In this document: piece after piece, positions 5,278-13,353 of the stretch | How positions within the stretch are numbered: position 1 is the first letter of the stretch | How the letters are laid out: each line of letters begins with the position of its first letter | Assembly: GCA_938048755.1 (NCBI GenBank) | Contig: CALIUG010000107.1 | Location: forward strand, 3,994 to 67,993 | Source of the DNA: an uncultured Alphaproteobacteria bacterium | GTDB taxonomy: Bacteria; Pseudomonadota; Alphaproteobacteria; SP197 | Reading direction: 5' to 3' | Length of the DNA stretch: 64,000 nucleotides | Notes under the pieces: generated by a model | Told to the model about the DNA's origin: nothing | The model's input: only the letters and a program-made list of their open reading frames with translations | The model's database searches: none | Made by a program: the position numbers and the translations under genes

Positions 5278-6515
5278 CAGGCTGCCTCGGCCAGCAGGGT
5301 CGTGCCGTCGCTCGACGTGATCGCCAGATCGGCCAGGCTTCCTGCCGGCAGCGTGCCGGGCGTCGTCACCGGCGCGAAGTGTTCGCTGCGGCCCCGCCCC
5401 TCGGCCTCCACCAGGACCTGTGCCGTGGTTCCGACGCGATCAGCCAGGAACCGTGCAACGGCCTCGTCACCGGCCTGACGCAACCGCTGGGCGCGTTCCT
5501 TGCGCAGGGGCTTCTCCACGGCAGGCATGCGCGCAGCCGGAGTTCCCGGACGCTCGGAATAGGGAAAGACGTGGAGCCAGGTCAGCCCGCAATCGGCGAC
5601 GTGCTGCAGGGTGTTCTCGAACATGACGTCGGATTCGGTCGGGAAGCCGGCGATCAGGTCCGCGCCGAACACGGTGTCGGGGCGCAGGCGGCGCATCAGG
5701 TCACAAAACGCGATCGCCTGTTCGGGTGTGTGGCGGCGTTTCATGCGCTTGAGCACCATGGCATCGCCCGCCTGCAGGGAAAGATGCAGATGCGGCATCA
5801 GCCGCTCTTCCTCGGCAAAGGCGCGGTAGAGGCTTTCGTCGGCCTCGGCGATGTCGAGGCTCGTGATCCGCAGGCGCGGCAGGTCCGGCACCAGCTTCAG
5901 GATGCGGCGTGCAAGATCACCCAATGTCGGCTTGCCCGGAAGGTCATCACCCCAGGACGTGATGTCGACCCCGGTCAAGACGACTTCGCGATAGCCGGCT
6001 TCGACCAGTCCTGCGATCTCGCGCACCACTTCACCGGCCGGCACGCTGCGGCTGGGGCCACGGCCATAGGGAATGATGCAGAAGGTGCAGCGGTGATCAC
6101 AGCCGTTCTGGACCTGCACGAAGGCACGGACGCGATCCTCGAATCCCGCCAGCATGTGCGACGCGGTTTCGCGCACGTCGGCAATGTCGTTGACGCTGAC
6201 CCTCTCCGGCGCCCTGGCCTGCCATGTCCCGGCTTCCAGCTTTTCAACATTGCCAACGACGCGATCCAGCTCGGGCATCTTCGCCCAGGTGTCGGGATCG
6301 ATCTGCACGGCACAACCGGTCGCCACGATGTTCGCTTCGGGATGTTCCCGTCGCGCACGGCGGATGGCCTGGCGCGCCTGGCGTTCGGCTTCGGCAGTGA
6401 CGGCGCAGGTGTTGATGACGATGGTATTGCCGGACTCGCTCGTGCCCAGATGGCCGCGAATCACTTCTGATTCGTATGCATTCAGGCGGCAGCCGAAGGT
6501 CAGGACATCGGACAT
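5277..6515 (-). CDS. mtaB: MiaB-like radical-SAM methylthiotransferase (MtaB type)
   Basis: N-terminal MTTase domain TFGCRLNAYESE and radical SAM CxxxCxxC (NGCDHRCTFCIIP). The dapF-mtaB-ftsY arrangement is conserved in alphaproteobacteria. Confidence 0.75.
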   Translation of the reverse strand: MSDVLTFGCRLNAYESEVIRGHLGTSESGNTIVINTCAVTAEAERQARQAIRRARREHPEANIVATGCAVQIDPDTWAKMPELDRVVGNVEKLEAGTWQARAPERVSVNDIADVRETASHMLAGFEDRVRAFVQVQNGCDHRCTFCIIPYGRGPSRSVPAGEVVREIAGLVEAGYREVVLTGVDITSWGDDLPGKPTLGDLARRILKLVPDLPRLRITSLDIAEADESLYRAFAEEERLMPHLHLSLQAGDAMVLKRMKRRHTPEQAIAFCDLMRRLRPDTVFGADLIAGFPTESDVMFENTLQHVADCGLTWLHVFPYSERPGTPAARMPAVEKPLRKERAQRLRQAGDEAVARFLADRVGTTAQVLVEAEGRGRSEHFAPVTTPGTLPAGSLADLAITSSDGTTLLAEAA

Positions 6516-8033: not shown

Positions 8034-8477
8034 ATGCTGGCAGCCCAGGAAGCTGCGGCAGAGCAGGAAGCCGCCGGGCAGTCGGGAGCTGCAGCAGATG
8101 GCGATGTCGGCCTTGTCATGCCGCACGCAATTCTGCGCGACTCCGGCGAGCTGGAGGTCGGCGAGCTGGCGGTTGTTCCTCCCAGTGGTGACAGCAGGCA
8201 GGCAACCGCCACCTTGACGAATGGTGACGTCTGCAGTGGCGGACTGGTCGGCACCGGAGACAATCGCGGAACCTTTGCACTTTCCTGTGAATCCGGAACA
8301 GTCTGGCTGGGTGACTACATCTTCGCCCAGGCAGATCTGGGCAGTGCCGTGATGCGCGACCACAGAAGCGCGCCGGCACGAATGGTTTATGGTGCCGATG
8401 CTGCCGACATCGAAGCCGGTCTGGTGGATTTCGAAAGCGTCTGGGCATCCCGCGAAGCCATGGCGATGCAGGAATAG
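8034..8477 (+). CDS. Hypothetical protein (147 aa)
   Basis: Only sizeable sense ORF in the 7946-8559 gap, with moderate GC3. No family recognised. Low confidence. Confidence 0.3.
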   Translation: MLAAQEAAAEQEAAGQSGAAADGDVGLVMPHAILRDSGELEVGELAVVPPSGDSRQATATLTNGDVCSGGLVGTGDNRGTFALSCESGTVWLGDYIFAQADLGSAVMRDHRSAPARMVYGADAADIEAGLVDFESVWASREAMAMQE

Positions 8478-8558: not shown

Positions 8559-10004
8559 ATGTTTGATTCTCTCTCCGACCGCCTGAACGGCATCTTTGAC
8601 GGCCTGCGCCGCAAAGGTGCGCTGAAGGATGATGACGTCAACGCAGCCCTGCGCGAGGTTCGCATCGCGCTGCTGGAAGCTGATGTTTCGCTGCCCGTGG
8701 TCAAGGACTTCATCGAAGCGGTACGCGAACGCGCTATCGGTCAGGAAGTCATGCGCGGGGTCAATCCCGGCCAGCAGGTCGTCAAGATCGTGCACGACCA
8801 TCTGGTCGAAACCCTGGGTGCGGAGACCTCGGACCTCAATCTTGCCGGCAATCCGCCCATCGCGATCATGATGGTCGGCCTGCAGGGTTCGGGCAAGACG
8901 ACCTCCACGGCAAAGATCGCACGCTGGCTTCAGGGCCAGGGTAAACGCGCCCTGATGGCTTCGCTCGATGTGCGCCGCCCGGCTGCCCAGCAGCAGCTGG
9001 CCGTGCTGGGTGAGCAGACCAATGTCGAGACGCTCGATATCATCATGGGCGAACAGCCCGTGCAGATCGCCAAACGCGCCATGGATCGCGGCCGCAAGGG
9101 TGGTTTTGATGTCGTGATGCTCGATACCGCGGGGCGCCTCCATCTCGATGACGAACTGATGGACGAAGCCGCCGCCGTGCGTGCGGCCGCCAATCCGCAG
9201 GAAATCCTGCTCGTGGCCGATGCCATGACCGGTCAGGACGCGGTCAACGTTGCTTCGGCCTTCAAGGAGAAGGTCGGCGTGACCGGCATTGTGCTCACGC
9301 GTGTCGATGGTGATGCCCGTGGTGGTGCCGCCCTCTCCATGCGCGCGGTGACCGGCTGCCCGATCAAGCTGATGGGCGTCGGCGAAAAGATCGACGAACT
9401 GGAAGCTTTCCATCCCGACCGGATCGCCGGGCGCATTCTGGGCATGGGTGATGTCGTCAGTCTGGTCGAGAAGGCCGCCCAGACCATCGAGGCCGATGAC
9501 GCCGAGCGCTTCGCCAAGAAGTTCCAGAAGGGCCAGCAGTTTGATCTCGATGACATGTGGGCCCAGCTCCGCCAACTCCGCAAGATGGGTGGCATGGACG
9601 GTCTGATGGGCCTGCTGCCCGGCGTCGCGAAGGCCAAGAAGCAGCTGGCCTCGGCCAAGATGGATGACAGCGCGCTGAAACGTCAGGAAGCCATCCTGTC
9701 CTCCATGACCAAAAAGGAACGTGCCGATCCGCGCATGATCCACGCCAGCCGCAAACGCCGCATCGCGGCGGGCGCCGGCGTCCAGGTCCAGGACATCAAC
9801 CGTCTCATGAAGCAGTTTCAGGAGATGAACGGCATGATGAAAAAGGTCCGCAAGATGGGCAAGAAAGGCCAGCTTCCACCCGGCATGGACATGTCCGCCA
9901 TGGGCGGCATGCCCGGCGCAGGCGGTGGCGGTGGAACCCCCAGCCAGGCCGAACTCGAAAAGATGGCCCAGGGCCTGAAACTCCCGCCGGGCTTCAAGAT
10001 GTGA
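8559..10004 (+). CDS. ffh: Signal recognition particle protein Ffh
   Basis: GLQGSGKTTSTAKIA, DTAGR, TRVDGDARGG, and an M domain with a Met-rich C-terminus (MNGMMKKVRKMG...MSAMGGMPG). Confidence 0.95.
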   Translation: MFDSLSDRLNGIFDGLRRKGALKDDDVNAALREVRIALLEADVSLPVVKDFIEAVRERAIGQEVMRGVNPGQQVVKIVHDHLVETLGAETSDLNLAGNPPIAIMMVGLQGSGKTTSTAKIARWLQGQGKRALMASLDVRRPAAQQQLAVLGEQTNVETLDIIMGEQPVQIAKRAMDRGRKGGFDVVMLDTAGRLHLDDELMDEAAAVRAAANPQEILLVADAMTGQDAVNVASAFKEKVGVTGIVLTRVDGDARGGAALSMRAVTGCPIKLMGVGEKIDELEAFHPDRIAGRILGMGDVVSLVEKAAQTIEADDAERFAKKFQKGQQFDLDDMWAQLRQLRKMGGMDGLMGLLPGVAKAKKQLASAKMDDSALKRQEAILSSMTKKERADPRMIHASRKRRIAAGAGVQVQDINRLMKQFQEMNGMMKKVRKMGKKGQLPPGMDMSAMGGMPGAGGGGGTPSQAELEKMAQGLKLPPGFKM

Positions 10005-10044
10005 CTTTGCCGACCGGGCGGTAGAGCTTGAATCTGTCGGCCCG

Positions 10045-10070
10045 GATATACATGTATGTCTTGTATATCA
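10045..10070. promoter_or_regulatory. Inverted repeat GATATACA-N10-TGTATATC upstream of vapB (candidate antitoxin operator)
   Basis: 8-bp perfect arms seen directly, overlapping the region just 5' of the SD GGAGGT and the ATG at 10084. Confidence 0.4.
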
Positions 10071-10083
10071 TCGGAGGTTCATC

Positions 10084-10314
10084 ATGCAGGTATCCAAATG
10101 GGGCAACAGTCTGGCCGTGCGCTTGCCTGCTGCCGTGGTGGAGGCGCTTGAGCTTCAGGAAGGTGACGATATCGCGATTGAGATTGCCGATGCGCGCACC
10201 TTCGCTGTACGGCGCAAACCCGGACAAGGAGAGCTGCTGAAACGGTTGCGGGCGTTCCGTGGCCGCTTGCCCGATGACTTCCATTTTGATCGCGACGAAG
10301 CCAATGCCAGGTAA
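10084..10314 (+). CDS. AbrB/MazE/SpoVT-family antitoxin (VapB-like)
   Basis: 76 aa, MQVSKWGNSLAVRLPAAVVEALELQEGDDI is a swapped-hairpin AbrB-type signature. It overlaps the downstream PIN gene. Confidence 0.75.
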   Translation: MQVSKWGNSLAVRLPAAVVEALELQEGDDIAIEIADARTFAVRRKPGQGELLKRLRAFRGRLPDDFHFDRDEANAR

Positions 10315-10723
10315 CTTCATCGACACGAATGTGTTGATCTATCTTGCCTCCGGCGATGCTGCCAAAGCAGACCGGGCTGAAGAGGTCGTTGCCCAAGGAG
10401 GCACGATCAGCGTTCAGGTATTGAATGAAATTGCCAACGTCGCGCGCCGCAAGATGCAACTCGACTGGTCCGAGACACGGACCCTGCTATCGCTCTTGCG
10501 CAATCTCCTGATAGCGGTCCCTCTCGACGAGAAGACCCATGACACCGGTCTCGCACTGGCTGAGCGATACGGATTCTCCATCTACGATTCGATGATCGTG
10601 GCATCCGCCTTAAGCGCTGGTTGCACGCAACTCTGGTCTGAAGACATGCAGAACGGGCTGCGTATCGGTGACCGGCTCATCATCACCGACCCGTTTTCAT
10701 CCGCCCGGTGGTGGTTGCGGTGA
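10304..10723 (+). CDS. PIN-domain toxin (VapC-like)
   Basis: MPGNFIDTNVLIY...SIYDSMIVASA...SEDMQ carries the PIN acidic residues. Start taken at the ATG at 10304; the track ORF begins at 10259. Confidence 0.75.
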   Translation: MPGNFIDTNVLIYLASGDAAKADRAEEVVAQGGTISVQVLNEIANVARRKMQLDWSETRTLLSLLRNLLIAVPLDEKTHDTGLALAERYGFSIYDSMIVASALSAGCTQLWSEDMQNGLRIGDRLIITDPFSSARWWLR

Positions 10724-10834
10724 TCGGTTCGTAGTCTTCGTGGAAGGCACTTCTCTTCACACTAATGTCTGCACAGGGGTTGAATTCGTGGTTTTCACGA
10801 TCATTTATTAAACGTCGTTTATTTAATTGCCTTA

Positions 10835-11158
10835 TTGGAACGACTCATGACTCGATCCAAACCTAGCGCAAATGGTCCGGCTAGTTCGCCAACTGACAAA
10901 ATTCCAACGGAAACTGAAGTTTCCTTGGCCACAGGTTCGGAGTCATCGAACGGAATCTTGAAGTTCTGGCTGACGGCGCTTGGTGTCTGCACATTCCCGC
11001 CAGTGGCATGGTTTGGCTACTTCATTGCTCGCCCCGGCGGTCTTACCGGCGATCAGATCTTTGGGTTGGCGCTGATCCTGATCGTGTTGAGTATGGTTTC
11101 TATCGGAGTTGCCGTACTCGTTTCTTTCGCCTTTCTTTGGGCGTGGATCAACCGATGA
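10835..11158 (+). CDS. Small membrane protein (107 aa, hydrophilic N-term + 2 predicted TM)
   Basis: Follows an AT-rich promoter-like tract (10780-10830). Hydrophobic segments WLTALGVCTFPPVAWFGYFIA and IFGLALILIVLSMVSIGVAVLVSFAFLWAWI. Local GC ~50%. Confidence 0.45.
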   Translation: MERLMTRSKPSANGPASSPTDKIPTETEVSLATGSESSNGILKFWLTALGVCTFPPVAWFGYFIARPGGLTGDQIFGLALILIVLSMVSIGVAVLVSFAFLWAWINR

Positions 11159-11385
11159 AGCACGTTCACCGGGGCGTTGCCGTATGGATGGCCATGGCGC
11201 TGGCCTATCTCCTCATGCTTGACACGCTTGAAGTTTCCTTCGCTGAATTGGGCATGCTTGGTCGCTGGACGTGGGCCGTGCTGGAAGCAGGTCTGCACAT
11301 CCTGGCCGCCTGGTTCGCCATCGGGACCCTTGGCGCCGCGGTATTCCTGGCTTCGGGCCTGTGCCACCGGCGGTCGGCATCATGA
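11155..11385 (+). CDS. Small membrane protein (76 aa, 2 predicted TM)
   Basis: ATGA-coupled to the previous ORF: MKHVHRGVAVWMAMALAYLLML...LHILAAWFAIGTLGAAVFLASGL. Confidence 0.4.
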   Translation: MKHVHRGVAVWMAMALAYLLMLDTLEVSFAELGMLGRWTWAVLEAGLHILAAWFAIGTLGAAVFLASGLCHRRSAS

Positions 11386-11669
11386 AGGGATTGTCATGCA
11401 GTGGGCATCGCACGTCGCGTCGAACGCTTCGTCCCGTCCGCTACTTCCTCTGGCTTTGGATGACCTGGTTTCTGGTGCCGCCCATCGTGGGCTTGTCGAT
11501 GGCAATCGCTGCCGTGCTTGAAGCGGCTGTCGGTGGTTCTGGCGATGTCATGTTCAGCCTTTTGACAGAACACATCCCGGCCATCATGCTGATCTGGCTT
11601 ACCGGCCTGATCGTCATTGCGCTGATCCATCACCTTGCGCGCCGTCTAGGCGCGGAGCTGCGCGCCTAG
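11382..11669 (+). CDS. Small membrane protein (95 aa, 2 predicted TM)
   Basis: ATGA-coupled to the previous ORF. FLWLWMTWFLVPPIVGLSMAIAAVLEAAV...IMLIWLTGLIVIALI shares an AVLEA motif with the preceding ORF. Confidence 0.4.
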   Translation: MKGLSCSGHRTSRRTLRPVRYFLWLWMTWFLVPPIVGLSMAIAAVLEAAVGGSGDVMFSLLTEHIPAIMLIWLTGLIVIALIHHLARRLGAELRA

Positions 11670-12400
11670 ACCAGCGTGCGCAGCGGCTTTTCGATCACCA
11701 CGGCCGTGGTGCAGCCACTCGGTGAATAGGACCCGTGGATGCTGCCGGGCGGCAGGCTCACCACGTCGCCGGTCCGGTAAGTCGTGCCGTCGGGGTCGGT
11801 GAGTTCGCCGCTCAACATGATGAACTCTTCCCAGCCTGTGTGTTCATGCCGTGACGAACTTGAACCCGGCAGAAAGTTGATCAGCGAGAGTCCTTCGCCG
11901 GTCTGGGGATTGGCGCGGATGTTGTGCCAGTCAATGGGATCGGCAGTCTCGGGCAGGCTGGGATAACGCTCGAAATCGGCCGTCTTCCAGTTCACGATTG
12001 TGCGGCCTTCCTGCATCGCCGCGATCTCGGGGTCACCTTCAACCGTATCGATGGGTTTCTGGATCCAGACCATCAGCGTGCAGCCCTTGGGCGAGCTGGT
12101 GCTGTGGCGCGTGCCGGGGTTGTAGCTCACGACATCACCTGTCTTGAGCACGGTGCCGTCGCCATCAATGAGTTCGCCGTCGAGCACGACAAACTCCTCC
12201 TGGCCGCTGTGGTGATGCAGCTTGGCGCCGCCGCCCGGGGTGATTTTGAGCAGATAGGTGCCATCGCCGGGTCCAGGTTCGGCGCGGACCGGGTGCCACA
12301 TCAGGTCGGTTTCACCGCCGTCGATGGCGGGATAGGGCTCCCAGTCACAGGTCATCCAGTTGACGACGACCCGACCATCCAGGTTCCAGACCTGATCCAT
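11666..12400 (-). CDS. Bicupin (two cupin_2 domains) protein
   Basis: Two repeated beta-barrel cupin modules (HxHxxxxE...G...H type: KLHHHSGQEEFVVLDGEL and SRHEHTGWEEFIMLSGEL). Start placed at MDQVWN to avoid overlap with the agmatinase gene; the track ORF extends to 12433. Confidence 0.6.
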   Translation of the reverse strand: MDQVWNLDGRVVVNWMTCDWEPYPAIDGGETDLMWHPVRAEPGPGDGTYLLKITPGGGAKLHHHSGQEEFVVLDGELIDGDGTVLKTGDVVSYNPGTRHSTSSPKGCTLMVWIQKPIDTVEGDPEIAAMQEGRTIVNWKTADFERYPSLPETADPIDWHNIRANPQTGEGLSLINFLPGSSSSRHEHTGWEEFIMLSGELTDPDGTTYRTGDVVSLPPGSIHGSYSPSGCTTAVVIEKPLRTLV

Positions 12401-12402
12401 GG

Positions 12403-13353
12403 CTACTTGCTCCGGTTTGTTGCCATCAAGCATGCCATCTCGAACATCATGTTGGCCACATTCACGAACGTGATGCCGATGGGGTCGTGCGGCGGGGAAA
12501 CCTCGCAGATGTCGCCGCCCACTGCGTTGATGCCCATCATGGAGCGGAAGATGACCTGCATGTCGCGCATGGAAATGCCGCCGGGCTCGGGCACGCCGGT
12601 GCCGGGGCAGTCGCGCGGGTCCAGGCCGTCGATGTCGACCGTGAGGTAACAGGGCTCGTCGCCCAGGACCTCCAGCGCCAGCTTGATGAAGGCTTCCCGG
12701 CCCATGACTTCGTATTCGTCCATCGGCACCATGGTGATGCCGACCTCGTTACCGTAACCGATGTCGTCGTCGCCATAACGTGTGCCGCGCAGGCCGACCT
12801 GGATGGTGCGTTTGGGGTCGATCAGGTTTTCTTCGACCGCACGGCGCACGAAGGTGGCGTGGTTGATCCTGGTGCCCATGAAGTCGTCGAATGTGTCGGC
12901 GTGGGCATCAACATGGAACAGACCCAGCGGACGGTCCTTGGCGATGGCGCGCAGGATGGGCAGTGGCACGGTGTGATCACCGCCGACCGAAAGCGGCCAG
13001 GCACCGGCGGCATGAATCTCTTCGTAGAAGCCCTGAATCATGTCCACGCTTTCCTCCACCTTCATCGGGTGGGTCGGTGCGTCGCCGACATCGGCAATGT
13101 TGCAAAGCCGGAACGGCGCAACCTTGGTTGCCGGATTGACCGCGCGGATCAGACGGCTGGCCTCGCGCGTGACCGCGGGGCCGTGACGTGCTCCCAGGCG
13201 ATAGGTCGCGCCGAGATCAAAGGGTACACCGGCAAGCGCGATATCGACATCGGGGCCAATTTCGTGGCGTTGCGAGCGCATGAACGTCGCGATCTCCTGA
13301 AAGCGGGGCGTGGTGCCCGAATCGTAAGGTTTGAAATCGCCGGGTCCCGACAT
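12403..13353 (-). CDS. Agmatinase/ureohydrolase (arginase family)
   Basis: Mn-binding motifs GGDHTV, DAHADT, TVDIDGLDP and SPPHD, 316 aa. Confidence 0.85.
   Translation of the reverse strand: MSGPGDFKPYDSGTTPRFQEIATFMRSQRHEIGPDVDIALAGVPFDLGATYRLGARHGPAVTREASRLIRAVNPATKVAPFRLCNIADVGDAPTHPMKVEESVDMIQGFYEEIHAAGAWPLSVGGDHTVPLPILRAIAKDRPLGLFHVDAHADTFDDFMGTRINHATFVRRAVEENLIDPKRTIQVGLRGTRYGDDDIGYGNEVGITMVPMDEYEVMGREAFIKLALEVLGDEPCYLTVDIDGLDPRDCPGTGVPEPGGISMRDMQVIFRSMMGINAVGGDICEVSPPHDPIGITFVNVANMMFEMACLMATNRSK

Follow-up and report, generated by a model that had tools for sequence, protein, structure and literature searches.

The window, the whole 64-kb stretch of DNA analyzed here, belongs to an uncultured alphaproteobacterial clade that is represented by metagenome-assembled genomes only. 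The region described has ffh, cupin, arginase, and rpsP genes as neighbors and lies between ffh, which ends at 10004, and the convergent cupin gene. It encodes a VapBC pair followed by three small proteins (o1, o2, and o3), all on the plus strand. The drop in GC content from ffh to the cupin gene that an earlier note had described is real but narrower than was claimed. In 300-nt segments the minimum is 0.49 at 10650-11099, with values of 0.55-0.58 across VapBC, and segments with 50% GC or less are confined to 10561-11105 in all 64 kb. The dip spans VapBC, the spacer, and o1; o2 (62.8% GC) and o3 (59.7% GC) are near the 61.4% mean of the window.

The first two genes had been read as a VapB (AbrB)-VapC (PIN) pair, and Pfam matches to MazE_antitoxin and PIN support that reading. 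vapB (10084-10314, plus strand) codes for an antitoxin of 76 amino acids with a MazE/AbrB (SpoVT-type) DNA-binding N-terminus (Pfam PF04014, MazE_antitoxin, 1.3e-10), and a GGAGG ribosome-binding site precedes it on the same strand at 10073-10077. Its nearest relatives in the PDB are MazE and PemI (about 2e-6). vapC (10304-10723, plus strand) codes for a PIN-domain toxin of 139 amino acids (Pfam PF01850, 6.7e-15), and the two reading frames overlap by 11 nt. Four acidic residues of VapC (D7, E42, D95, and E113) are each at least 97% conserved in 81 family members. The dN/dS is 0.06 for vapB and 0.11-0.14 for vapC. The last five residues of this VapC are an extension by stop-codon loss, the orthologues being 134 amino acids long.

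Upstream of vapB, the operator-like palindrome that the earlier note had pointed out, GATATACA-N9-TGTATATC, was found at 10045-10069. It is an 8-nt inverted repeat 39 nt upstream of the vapB ATG and a candidate operator for VapB. A perfect 8-nt inverted repeat arises by chance with a frequency of 0.0115 in shuffles of the 79-nt spacer. Unrelated metagenomes gave 72 loci with a VapB homologue; in most of these, GATATAC(A)-N(4-12)-(T)GTATATC lies 38-42 nt upstream of the ATG, and the ATATAC core is present in 71. Judged from its sequence, the unit at 10045-10723 is a canonical type II VapBC module. Like other modules that pair a MazE/AbrB-type VapB with a PIN VapC, it has the antitoxin gene first, overlapping frames, a DNA-binding antitoxin, a PIN toxin whose acidic residues are all present, an upstream palindromic operator, and a patchy, mobile distribution. 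It differs in nothing essential beyond the five-residue C-terminal extension. VapB would neutralize the PIN ribonuclease VapC, and the pair is predicted to be autoregulated, with the VapB-VapC complex acting at the GATATAC-N-GTATATC operator to repress the promoter.

Among solved structures, only 8wmm, that of PcrIIC1, resembles this VapC in sequence (E = 1.5e-15 over nearly the full length). According to PMC12669027 (citing Zhang et al. 2024), PcrIIC1 is a PIN-domain pro-CRISPR accessory protein that belongs to certain type II-C Cas9 loci. It shares the IDTN and SEDM motifs with this VapC. Unlike PcrIIC1, the VapC encoded here has a VapB partner, and cas genes were not noted in its vicinity. 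A search of metagenomes found 268 VapC relatives, for which 80 loci were retained, and in all 71 of the retained loci with room upstream VapB is encoded immediately before VapC. The pairing and the lack of noted cas genes argue that the present VapC is the toxin of a toxin-antitoxin pair rather than a Cas9 accessory protein.

The earlier note had placed VapBC and the three membrane proteins together as an islet inserted into the core genome. For VapBC this stands, as the pair is absent from otherwise collinear relatives. In a MAFFT alignment, three relatives (L026, L010, and L009) have a single unbroken gap in place of VapBC with homologous flanks on both sides. The inserted cassette is about 0.7 kb (10017-10712, plus strand, boundaries within about 10 nt) and begins about 12 nt past the ffh stop. 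Another relative, L030, lacks VapBC, yet its ffh and cupin proteins are 99.6% identical to those of the window. The cassette is polymorphic among near-identical strains. The module probably arrived as one cassette of this size directly after the ffh stop. A target-site duplication around the cassette was considered and rejected, the flanking CCG-CCGG repeat being weak, imperfect, found only in the window, and absent in L035. No integrase ORF was found in 10005-11669.

The gene content of close relatives marks the ffh-cupin interval as a recurrent insertion hotspot. In addition to the VapBC of the window, close relatives have at this site a KAP NTPase gene flanked by a duplicated 3' end of ffh, a truncated PIN gene, and TauD remnants. 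In having cargo that varies among close relatives, the interval resembles the integration hotspots known as variable slots between core genes. It differs from them in that neither an integrase nor a recognizable attachment site was found with the VapBC cassette, and its flanking direct repeat is weak.

Downstream of vapC, the AT-rich, promoter-like tract of the earlier note was recovered as a conserved segment of 41% GC at 10724-10850. Within it we propose a promoter or regulatory element for the small-ORF operon at 10780-10826 on the plus strand. The element consists of TTGAAT (-35-like, 10780-10785), 18 nt, and TTTATT, with an invariant ATTAAAC core at 10807-10813. The TTG and ATT-AAC do not vary in an alignment of nine locus variants, some of which have a different first gene downstream. 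A sigma-70 consensus scan called no promoter at the operon, so the proposal is based solely on this conservation. A CtrA box in the element was rejected because the spacing of TTAA is wrong and not conserved. That the operon is co-transcribed with ffh, or connected to the signal recognition particle, was also considered and rejected, given the TauD gene that intervenes in L036 and the conserved promoter.

The three coupled small ORFs and their ATGA overlaps at 11155 and 11382 are all present as had been described, and the overlaps are retained in relatives. The two hydrophobic segments ascribed to each ORF are seen by hydropathy in o1, o2, and o3, and AlphaFold2 models o2 and o3 as helical hairpins. 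o1 (10847-11158, plus strand, 103 amino acids) has a hydrophilic N-terminus rich in Ser, Thr, and Pro before its two hydrophobic helices, and it occupies a first slot that is variable. The o2 gene (11155-11385, plus strand) codes for a two-helix membrane hairpin of 76 amino acids; its start overlaps the o1 stop, and the model has helices at residues 2-31 and 34-73 (pLDDT 84). The o3 gene (11382-11669, plus strand) codes for a second such hairpin, of 95 amino acids (pLDDT 69); its start overlaps the o2 stop, and its own stop shares a CTAG with the convergent cupin gene. Spanning these convergent stops is a near-perfect, GC-rich palindrome of 28 nt (11644-11671), a candidate two-way terminator. 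The palindrome region has a fold energy of -37 kcal/mol (61 nt, z = -3.3); L030, L009, and L010 keep the palindrome, and L026 and L013 do not. When 9900-11800 was scanned against Rfam, the one match, to a snoRNA, was at chance level.

The differences among homologues of o2 and o3 fall mostly at third codon positions, and on this sequence comparison both are clearly real genes under purifying selection, with dN/dS of 0.20-0.35 for o2 and 0.24-0.53 for o3. Antisense ORFs across o2 and o3 were rejected, as the third-position substitution bias favors the plus-strand frames. The dN of o2 and o3 is 0.12-0.21 versus 0.001-0.03 in ffh, the arginase gene, and the cupin gene, and their amino-acid change is 10 to 100 times that of the flanking genes. 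Homologues of o2 are 70-87% identical and are found at the same site with or without VapBC. For o3, only seven homologues were found in 5.8 billion proteins, all at the ffh-cupin site. The o3 family forms only three clusters at 50% identity among 1.84 billion representatives, to which a profile search added one distant member. The second helix of o3 has an invariant IPAIM..WLTGLIVIA.

An AVLEA motif shared by o2 and o3 had been taken to suggest that they are paralogues. The motif is there (residues 41-45 of o2 and 44-48 of o3), but hhalign (probability 0.1-0.2%) and Smith-Waterman (z = -1.2) detected no paralogy between the two. A shared 5-mer arises by chance in 2.4% of composition-preserving shuffles of o2 and o3. 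The motif opens the second helix in o2 but closes the first helix in o3, and its fifth residue is not conserved in o3 homologues. No paralogues of o1, o2, or o3 are encoded elsewhere in the 64-kb window.

Database searches matched the small proteins to no known family. Pfam, NCBIfam, PADLOC, and PHROG gave no significant match for o1-o3 or for the alternative slot genes, and sequence and profile searches of the PDB with o2 and o3, as well as Foldseek searches of the PDB with their AlphaFold2 models, also returned nothing. Like class II (two-transmembrane) holins and small abortive-infection membrane effectors, o1-o3 are small, have two hydrophobic helices each, and are encoded by tandem genes coupled in translation. 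They differ in that neither an endolysin or sensor protein nor any phage gene is encoded nearby, that PHROG, PADLOC, and viral contigs contain no relatives, and that their chromosomal position is stable across the clade. Searches for a phage holin or lysis cassette gave a best PHROG match of E = 0.021, to a family of unknown function, which is not significant, and no relatives of o1, o2, or o3 in viral contigs.

The first gene of the operon is of a different kind. The earlier note gave o1 107 amino acids; the ORF holds up, but the longer start does not, as the TTG at 10835 is more likely inside the ribosome-binding site. The ATG start of the 103-residue form is used in public annotations and has a conserved GGA(A/G) upstream. 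Only three homologues of o1 were found (86-100% identity), and by hhalign o1 has no relative among the other first-slot genes. Between sublineages, the first-slot genes are replaced, duplicated, split, or deleted. Some sublineages have an additional gene of 121 amino acids.

Some of the small ORFs, o1 especially, might be non-functional, either decaying genes or chance hydrophobic frames, which we regard as unlikely. The dN/dS of o1 is 0.47-0.72 with its differences nearly even over codon positions, its GC3 of 0.56 is atypical compared to 0.73-0.80 in the flanking core genes, its relatives are limited to three close variants, and in L030 and L013 the first slot has split or truncated genes. 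However, o1 is intact across 103 codons in three lineages with its ATGA coupling to o2 kept, the second hydrophobic helix of o1 is nearly invariant, and the purifying selection on o2 and o3 is clear. o1 is weakly constrained and may be decaying.

We consider it probable that the low-GC stretch is made up of two independent units, a mobile VapBC cassette and an older, clade-restricted operon of small membrane proteins, which share the recombination-prone gap between ffh and the cupin gene. At the ffh-cupin site o2 and o3 are encoded in relatives that lack VapBC (L006-L014, L026-L032, and L036), and three small ORFs are already present at this site in L036, a distant relative. From this distribution the operon (10780-11669) appears to be clade-specific and older than the VapBC insertion. 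o2 and o3 are found at the site without VapBC, and VapBC is found elsewhere without the trio; their neighborhood is probably positional rather than functional. The claim that the trio was inserted along with VapBC fails, since o2 and o3 are at the identical site in relatives without VapBC and the operon has its own conserved promoter.

The single defense or addiction islet of the earlier note, with the membrane trio as effectors or partners of the toxin-antitoxin pair, is on this evidence highly improbable. Its component features are present, but synteny separates VapBC from the operon. The genes are adjacent on one strand, share a GC dip over VapBC, the spacer, and o1, and lie at a site that in relatives also took a KAP NTPase and another PIN gene. 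o1 has so far been found only downstream of VapBC. As the known o1 homologues, in three sequence variants, all share this position, co-occurrence alone would allow that VapBC and o1 are linked; shared ancestry accounts for it equally well, as the loci are close relatives. Synteny largely refutes the islet, however, as o2 and o3 predate VapBC and are without it in many relatives, vapC and o1 have a distinct conserved promoter between them, and none of the 80 retained VapBC homologue loci has ffh, the cupin gene, or o1-o3. A small hydrophobic ORF follows VapBC homologues in only two of 56 loci. The components do not co-occur across genomes as an islet would, with o2 and o3 lacking VapBC in at least five locus types and VapBC lacking the trio in 80 loci. 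VapB, VapC, o1, o2, and o3 matched no PADLOC defense model at E values up to 0.1, and the likeness to defense or abortive-infection islets is not borne out for the trio, which has no PADLOC, PHROG, or viral-contig match. Conserved core genes of uniform GC, which the earlier note held to be at odds with an islet, describe o2 and o3 (conserved, with near-normal GC) and not VapBC or o1.

In the operon of the two-unit reading, the conserved AT-rich promoter would drive o1, o2, and o3, whose translation is coupled and whose small products would each sit in the inner membrane as a two-helix hairpin. By the positive-inside rule, both termini of o2 and o3 are predicted to be cytoplasmic and their acidic loop periplasmic. 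The translational coupling alone suggests that o1-o3 are made in a fixed ratio and may form one small mixed membrane complex. o2 and o3 would be the conserved core, with the first slot replaced, duplicated, or broken in each sublineage.

Could the operon be a conflict locus in its own right, either a membrane immunity or exclusion array or a set of small membrane toxins with immunity partners, its turnover reflecting an arms race? The rapid amino-acid change relative to the flanking genes, the first-slot turnover and extra 121-residue gene, and the position in a hotspot where toxin-antitoxin and NTPase genes have been gained repeatedly are consistent with this. We nevertheless think it rather unlikely, as there are no toxin, bacteriocin, secretion, or phage genes nearby and no PADLOC, PHROG, or viral matches, and the operon is fixed in place and vertically inherited. 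The dN/dS is below 1 in every comparison, and relaxed constraint fits equally well. There is similarly a slim chance that the ffh-cupin gap is a previously undescribed locus, with a conserved promoter, a hairpin array, a stable o2-o3 core, and a swappable first cassette, engaged in an arms race of membrane immunity, exclusion, or conflict. Depending on the sublineage, its first position would then contain a duplicate, a pseudogene, or a two-helix gene that is unrelated or has diverged rapidly.

The small proteins could instead serve the TauD-family dioxygenase, the double-cupin protein, and the arginase-family hydrolase as accessory subunits in the membrane, for instance as a transporter or an anchor. 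In the clade their genes are always beside those for the cupin and arginase proteins, L036, the most distant relative, has an intact TauD gene directly upstream, and the o3 and cupin stop codons overlap. This role is quite unlikely, as the cupin and arginase genes are present without any of the o-genes in L016 and L022-L024, o2 and o3 persist where TauD is decayed or lost, and the enzymes evolve far more slowly than the small ORFs. The convergent orientation also means that the operon shares no transcript with the cupin gene.

Nothing in the stretch suggests a new mechanism. The shared GC dip and the adjacency of the genes did not amount to a functional islet, and it was synteny that parted a recent cassette from older residents. 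This VapBC copy is one more member of a very large family, and it adds a well-supported operator motif for its VapB subfamily. What remains is an orphan operon in which genes for small membrane proteins turn over fast at a fixed slot downstream of a conserved promoter. Knowing its function would be of some interest for the biology of small proteins in uncultured marine-type Alphaproteobacteria.

The ffh stop (10004) and a convergent double-cupin gene on the minus strand (11666-12433) enclose five plus-strand ORFs: vapB (10084-10314), vapC (10304-10723) and three small ORFs, o1 (10847-11158), o2 (11155-11385) and o3 (11382-11669). All three small ORFs reported in the earlier note were found, each with two hydrophobic segments, as were the ATGA overlaps at 11155 and 11382. 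For o1, however, the most probable start is the ATG at 10847; the resulting 103 aa agree with public annotations, against the 107 aa proposed. A start at the TTG at 10835 is less probable, since that codon sits inside a conserved GGA(A/G) ribosome-binding site. In 300-nt windows, GC falls from ~0.62-0.65 outside to 0.55-0.58 across vapBC, reaches a minimum of 0.49 at 10650-11099 and recovers to 0.60-0.64 by 11100. Over all 64 kb, windows with GC ≤50% occur solely inside 10561-11105. The dip, described as running from ffh to the cupin gene, is thus real over vapBC, the spacer and o1, but o2 (62.8%) and o3 (59.7%) lie outside it.

VapBC and the membrane trio had been taken for a single defence or addiction islet, which synteny contradicts. 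Through o3 and o2 homologues we reached collinear loci in related metagenome-assembled genomes, labelled uncultured Alphaproteobacteria and, for one in the genome scan, Rhodospirillaceae. All share a backbone of ATC-hydrolase, a 184-aa ORF, ffh, a variable part, convergent cupin and arginase genes, and rpsP-rimM-trmD-rplS. The ORF preceding ffh (8034-8477 in the window; annotated at 180-184 aa in related loci) has no Pfam match and is present in all collinear relatives. Aligning the window with three VapBC-free relatives leaves one unbroken gap at ~10017-10712 with homology on both sides. Locus L030 lacks VapBC, yet matches the window at 99.6% identity in its Ffh and cupin proteins, and at the 80 VapBC homologue loci neither ffh nor the cupin gene nor any of o1-o3 occurs. 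Together these comparisons indicate that VapBC is a mobile module that landed here as a recent cassette insertion. A small hydrophobic ORF follows VapBC in 2 of 56 homologue loci. No integrase is present at the insertion, and microhomology at its flanks is weak. The expected insertion downstream of ffh therefore holds for VapBC but not for o2 and o3, which are resident in VapBC-free relatives.

The VapB(AbrB)-VapC(PIN) assignment was borne out by Pfam (MazE_antitoxin, 1.3e-10; PIN, 6.7e-15). Solved structures related to VapB are MazE and PemI. VapC has a single solved relative, PcrIIC1 (PDB 8wmm), described as a PIN-domain "pro-CRISPR" accessory protein of some type II-C Cas9 systems (PMC12669027). 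As this sole match covers the full length (E = 1.5e-15), PcrIIC1 appears to derive from the window's VapC subfamily. The subfamily itself is paired with VapB: a metagenome scan gave 268 VapC relatives, and among the 80 loci retained (60-70% identity) a VapB homologue lies directly upstream of VapC in all 71 with upstream room. An alignment of 81 family members shows at least 97% conservation of the acidic residues D7, E42, D95 and E113, all of which the window copy has. Values of dN/dS against orthologues are 0.06 for vapB and 0.11-0.14 for vapC, so both are under strong purifying selection. The window VapC has 139 aa versus 134 aa in orthologues, the ancestral TGA stop having become CGG with RWWLR appended (10706-10723, against L035 and L033).

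The palindrome noted upstream of vapB is present at 10045-10069. Judged on the window alone, a perfect 8-nt repeat arises with probability 0.0115 in shuffles of the 79-nt spacer. In most homologue loci an inverted repeat, GATATAC(A)-N(4-12)-(T)GTATATC, lies 38-42 nt 5' of the vapB start, and ATATAC occurs upstream of vapB in 71 of 72. This conservation at a fixed distance is strong comparative evidence for the palindrome as a candidate cognate operator. By analogy with established VapBC systems, toxicity, an RNA target and autoregulation may be expected, and the pair would act as a standard addiction or stress module autoregulated through its operator.

The 10724-10846 spacer, which follows vapC, has its homologue in the spacer next to ffh in VapBC-free relatives. 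Nine locus variants preserve a block within it, irrespective of which gene comes first downstream. It contains a -35-like TTGAAT (10780-10785; TTG conserved among the nine), 18 nt later (T/A)TTATT with an invariant ATTAAAC core (10807-10813), and a GGA-type ribosome-binding site. A consensus promoter scanner made no call on the block, so we regard it as a putative promoter or regulatory site of the small-ORF operon's own. The variable part reads 96-aa gene, o2, o3 in L026-29; 96-aa gene, o2, 121-aa gene, o3 in L010-12; 109-aa gene, o2 remnant, 122-aa gene, o3 in L006-9; KAP NTPase island, split first gene, o2, o3 in L030-32; short remnant, o2, o3 in L013-14; and intact TauD, 71-aa o2 paralogue, o2, o3 in L036, the most distant relative. 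From these arrangements, the ancestral state is about three small genes in a row, in an operon separate from VapBC and older than it.

In many bacteria, E. coli included, ffh is adjacent to rpsP-rimM-trmD-rplS. In the window's clade this gap has gained the small-ORF operon as well as a convergent pair of cupin and arginase genes, and its ffh-proximal end keeps acquiring cargo, VapBC in the window being one case. In L030 (2690-4394; also L031 and L032) ffh is followed by the gene for a KAP-family P-loop NTPase, beyond which the final ~180 nt of ffh recur in a second copy, 90.7% identical (window counterpart, 9809-9991). This looks like an island integrated at the ffh 3' end with target duplication; no integrase was seen with it. 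The more distant L022 carries an HTH_3 helix-turn-helix gene, possibly an antitoxin, and a DUF4143 ATPase. L016, from a related complete chromosome whose cupin is 82% identical to the window's, has an N-terminally truncated PIN gene (5765-6370, stored orientation), 55% identical to the window VapC, abutting the cupin stop and fused in frame to TauD-derived sequence. Neither vapB nor o-genes are present there. The PIN gene is an independent acquisition at this gap, since decayed.

Between ffh and the small ORFs, a TauD-family dioxygenase gene is intact in L036 (3639-4397), survives as Pfam-confirmed fragments in L016 (6186-6539) and L018 (6404-6694), and has left no trace in the window, a series that records stepwise gene decay. 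That the operon is accessory to the TauD, cupin and arginase genes beside it ranks third among our readings, weakened by the persistence of these neighbours without small ORFs in L016 and L022-24 and by the convergent orientation. A 28-nt near-perfect GC-rich palindrome (11644-11671) spans the CTAG common to the convergent o3 and cupin stops, folds at -37 kcal/mol for 61 nt (z = -3.3) and doubles as coding sequence for the conserved o3 tail GAELRA. L030, L009 and L010 retain this palindrome, a candidate two-way terminator; L026 and L013 lack it, and there o3 runs 29 nt into the cupin gene. The cupin gene is itself allelic: in L026-L029 and L013 its proteins are 67-69% identical to the window's (dN 0.25) while arginase (dN 0.023) and ffh (dN 0.018) stay close, so the variable or recombining region reaches into it.

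Substitutions in o2 and o3 cluster at third codon positions and ATGA coupling is retained in relatives, which marks both as genuine coding genes. Their dN/dS is 0.20-0.35 and 0.24-0.53, compared with 0.00-0.15 for flanking core genes; their dN (0.12-0.21) is 10-100x that of ffh, arginase and cupin in the same genome pairs (0.001-0.03). First-slot genes, o1 (0.47-0.72) and the 96-aa gene (0.78), are barely constrained. Such fast evolution, with cassette turnover within a hotspot, would suit a conflict or immunity array, our second-ranked reading, but the operon carries no toxin, phage or defence signature. Pfam, NCBIfam, PADLOC, PHROGs, the PDB (sequence, profile, Foldseek) and viral contigs gave no match, and a full HMMER profile search turned up three clusters only among 1.84 billion cluster representatives. 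The supposed paralogy of o2 and o3 was not detectable on comparison (hhalign probability 0.1-0.2%, Smith-Waterman z = -1.2); the shared AVLEA differs in topological position, is partially conserved and is reached by chance in 2.4% of shuffles. Other small genes do give signs of paralogy: the 71-aa L036 gene is a duplicate of o2 (95.6% probability), and L009 has in its first slot a 109-aa gene with a weak resemblance to o3 (z = 6.9, hhalign 22%). For its part, o1 resembles no other gene compared.

AlphaFold2 predicts helical hairpins (pLDDT 84 for o2, 69 for o3), and basic ends with an acidic loop predict both termini to be cytoplasmic. Throughout the family, the second o3 helix (IPAIM..WLTGLIVIA) shows no variation. 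Most likely, one promoter and translational coupling would yield three hairpin proteins in fixed ratios, which may join in a small mixed complex of the inner membrane, its conserved core being o2 and o3. We consider a lineage-specific accessory complex under relaxed constraint the most likely role. VapBC is a further member of an already known toxin-antitoxin type. The small-ORF operon gives no sign of a new mechanism; it is an uncharacterised orphan family, confined to one clade, with interesting evolutionary dynamics.
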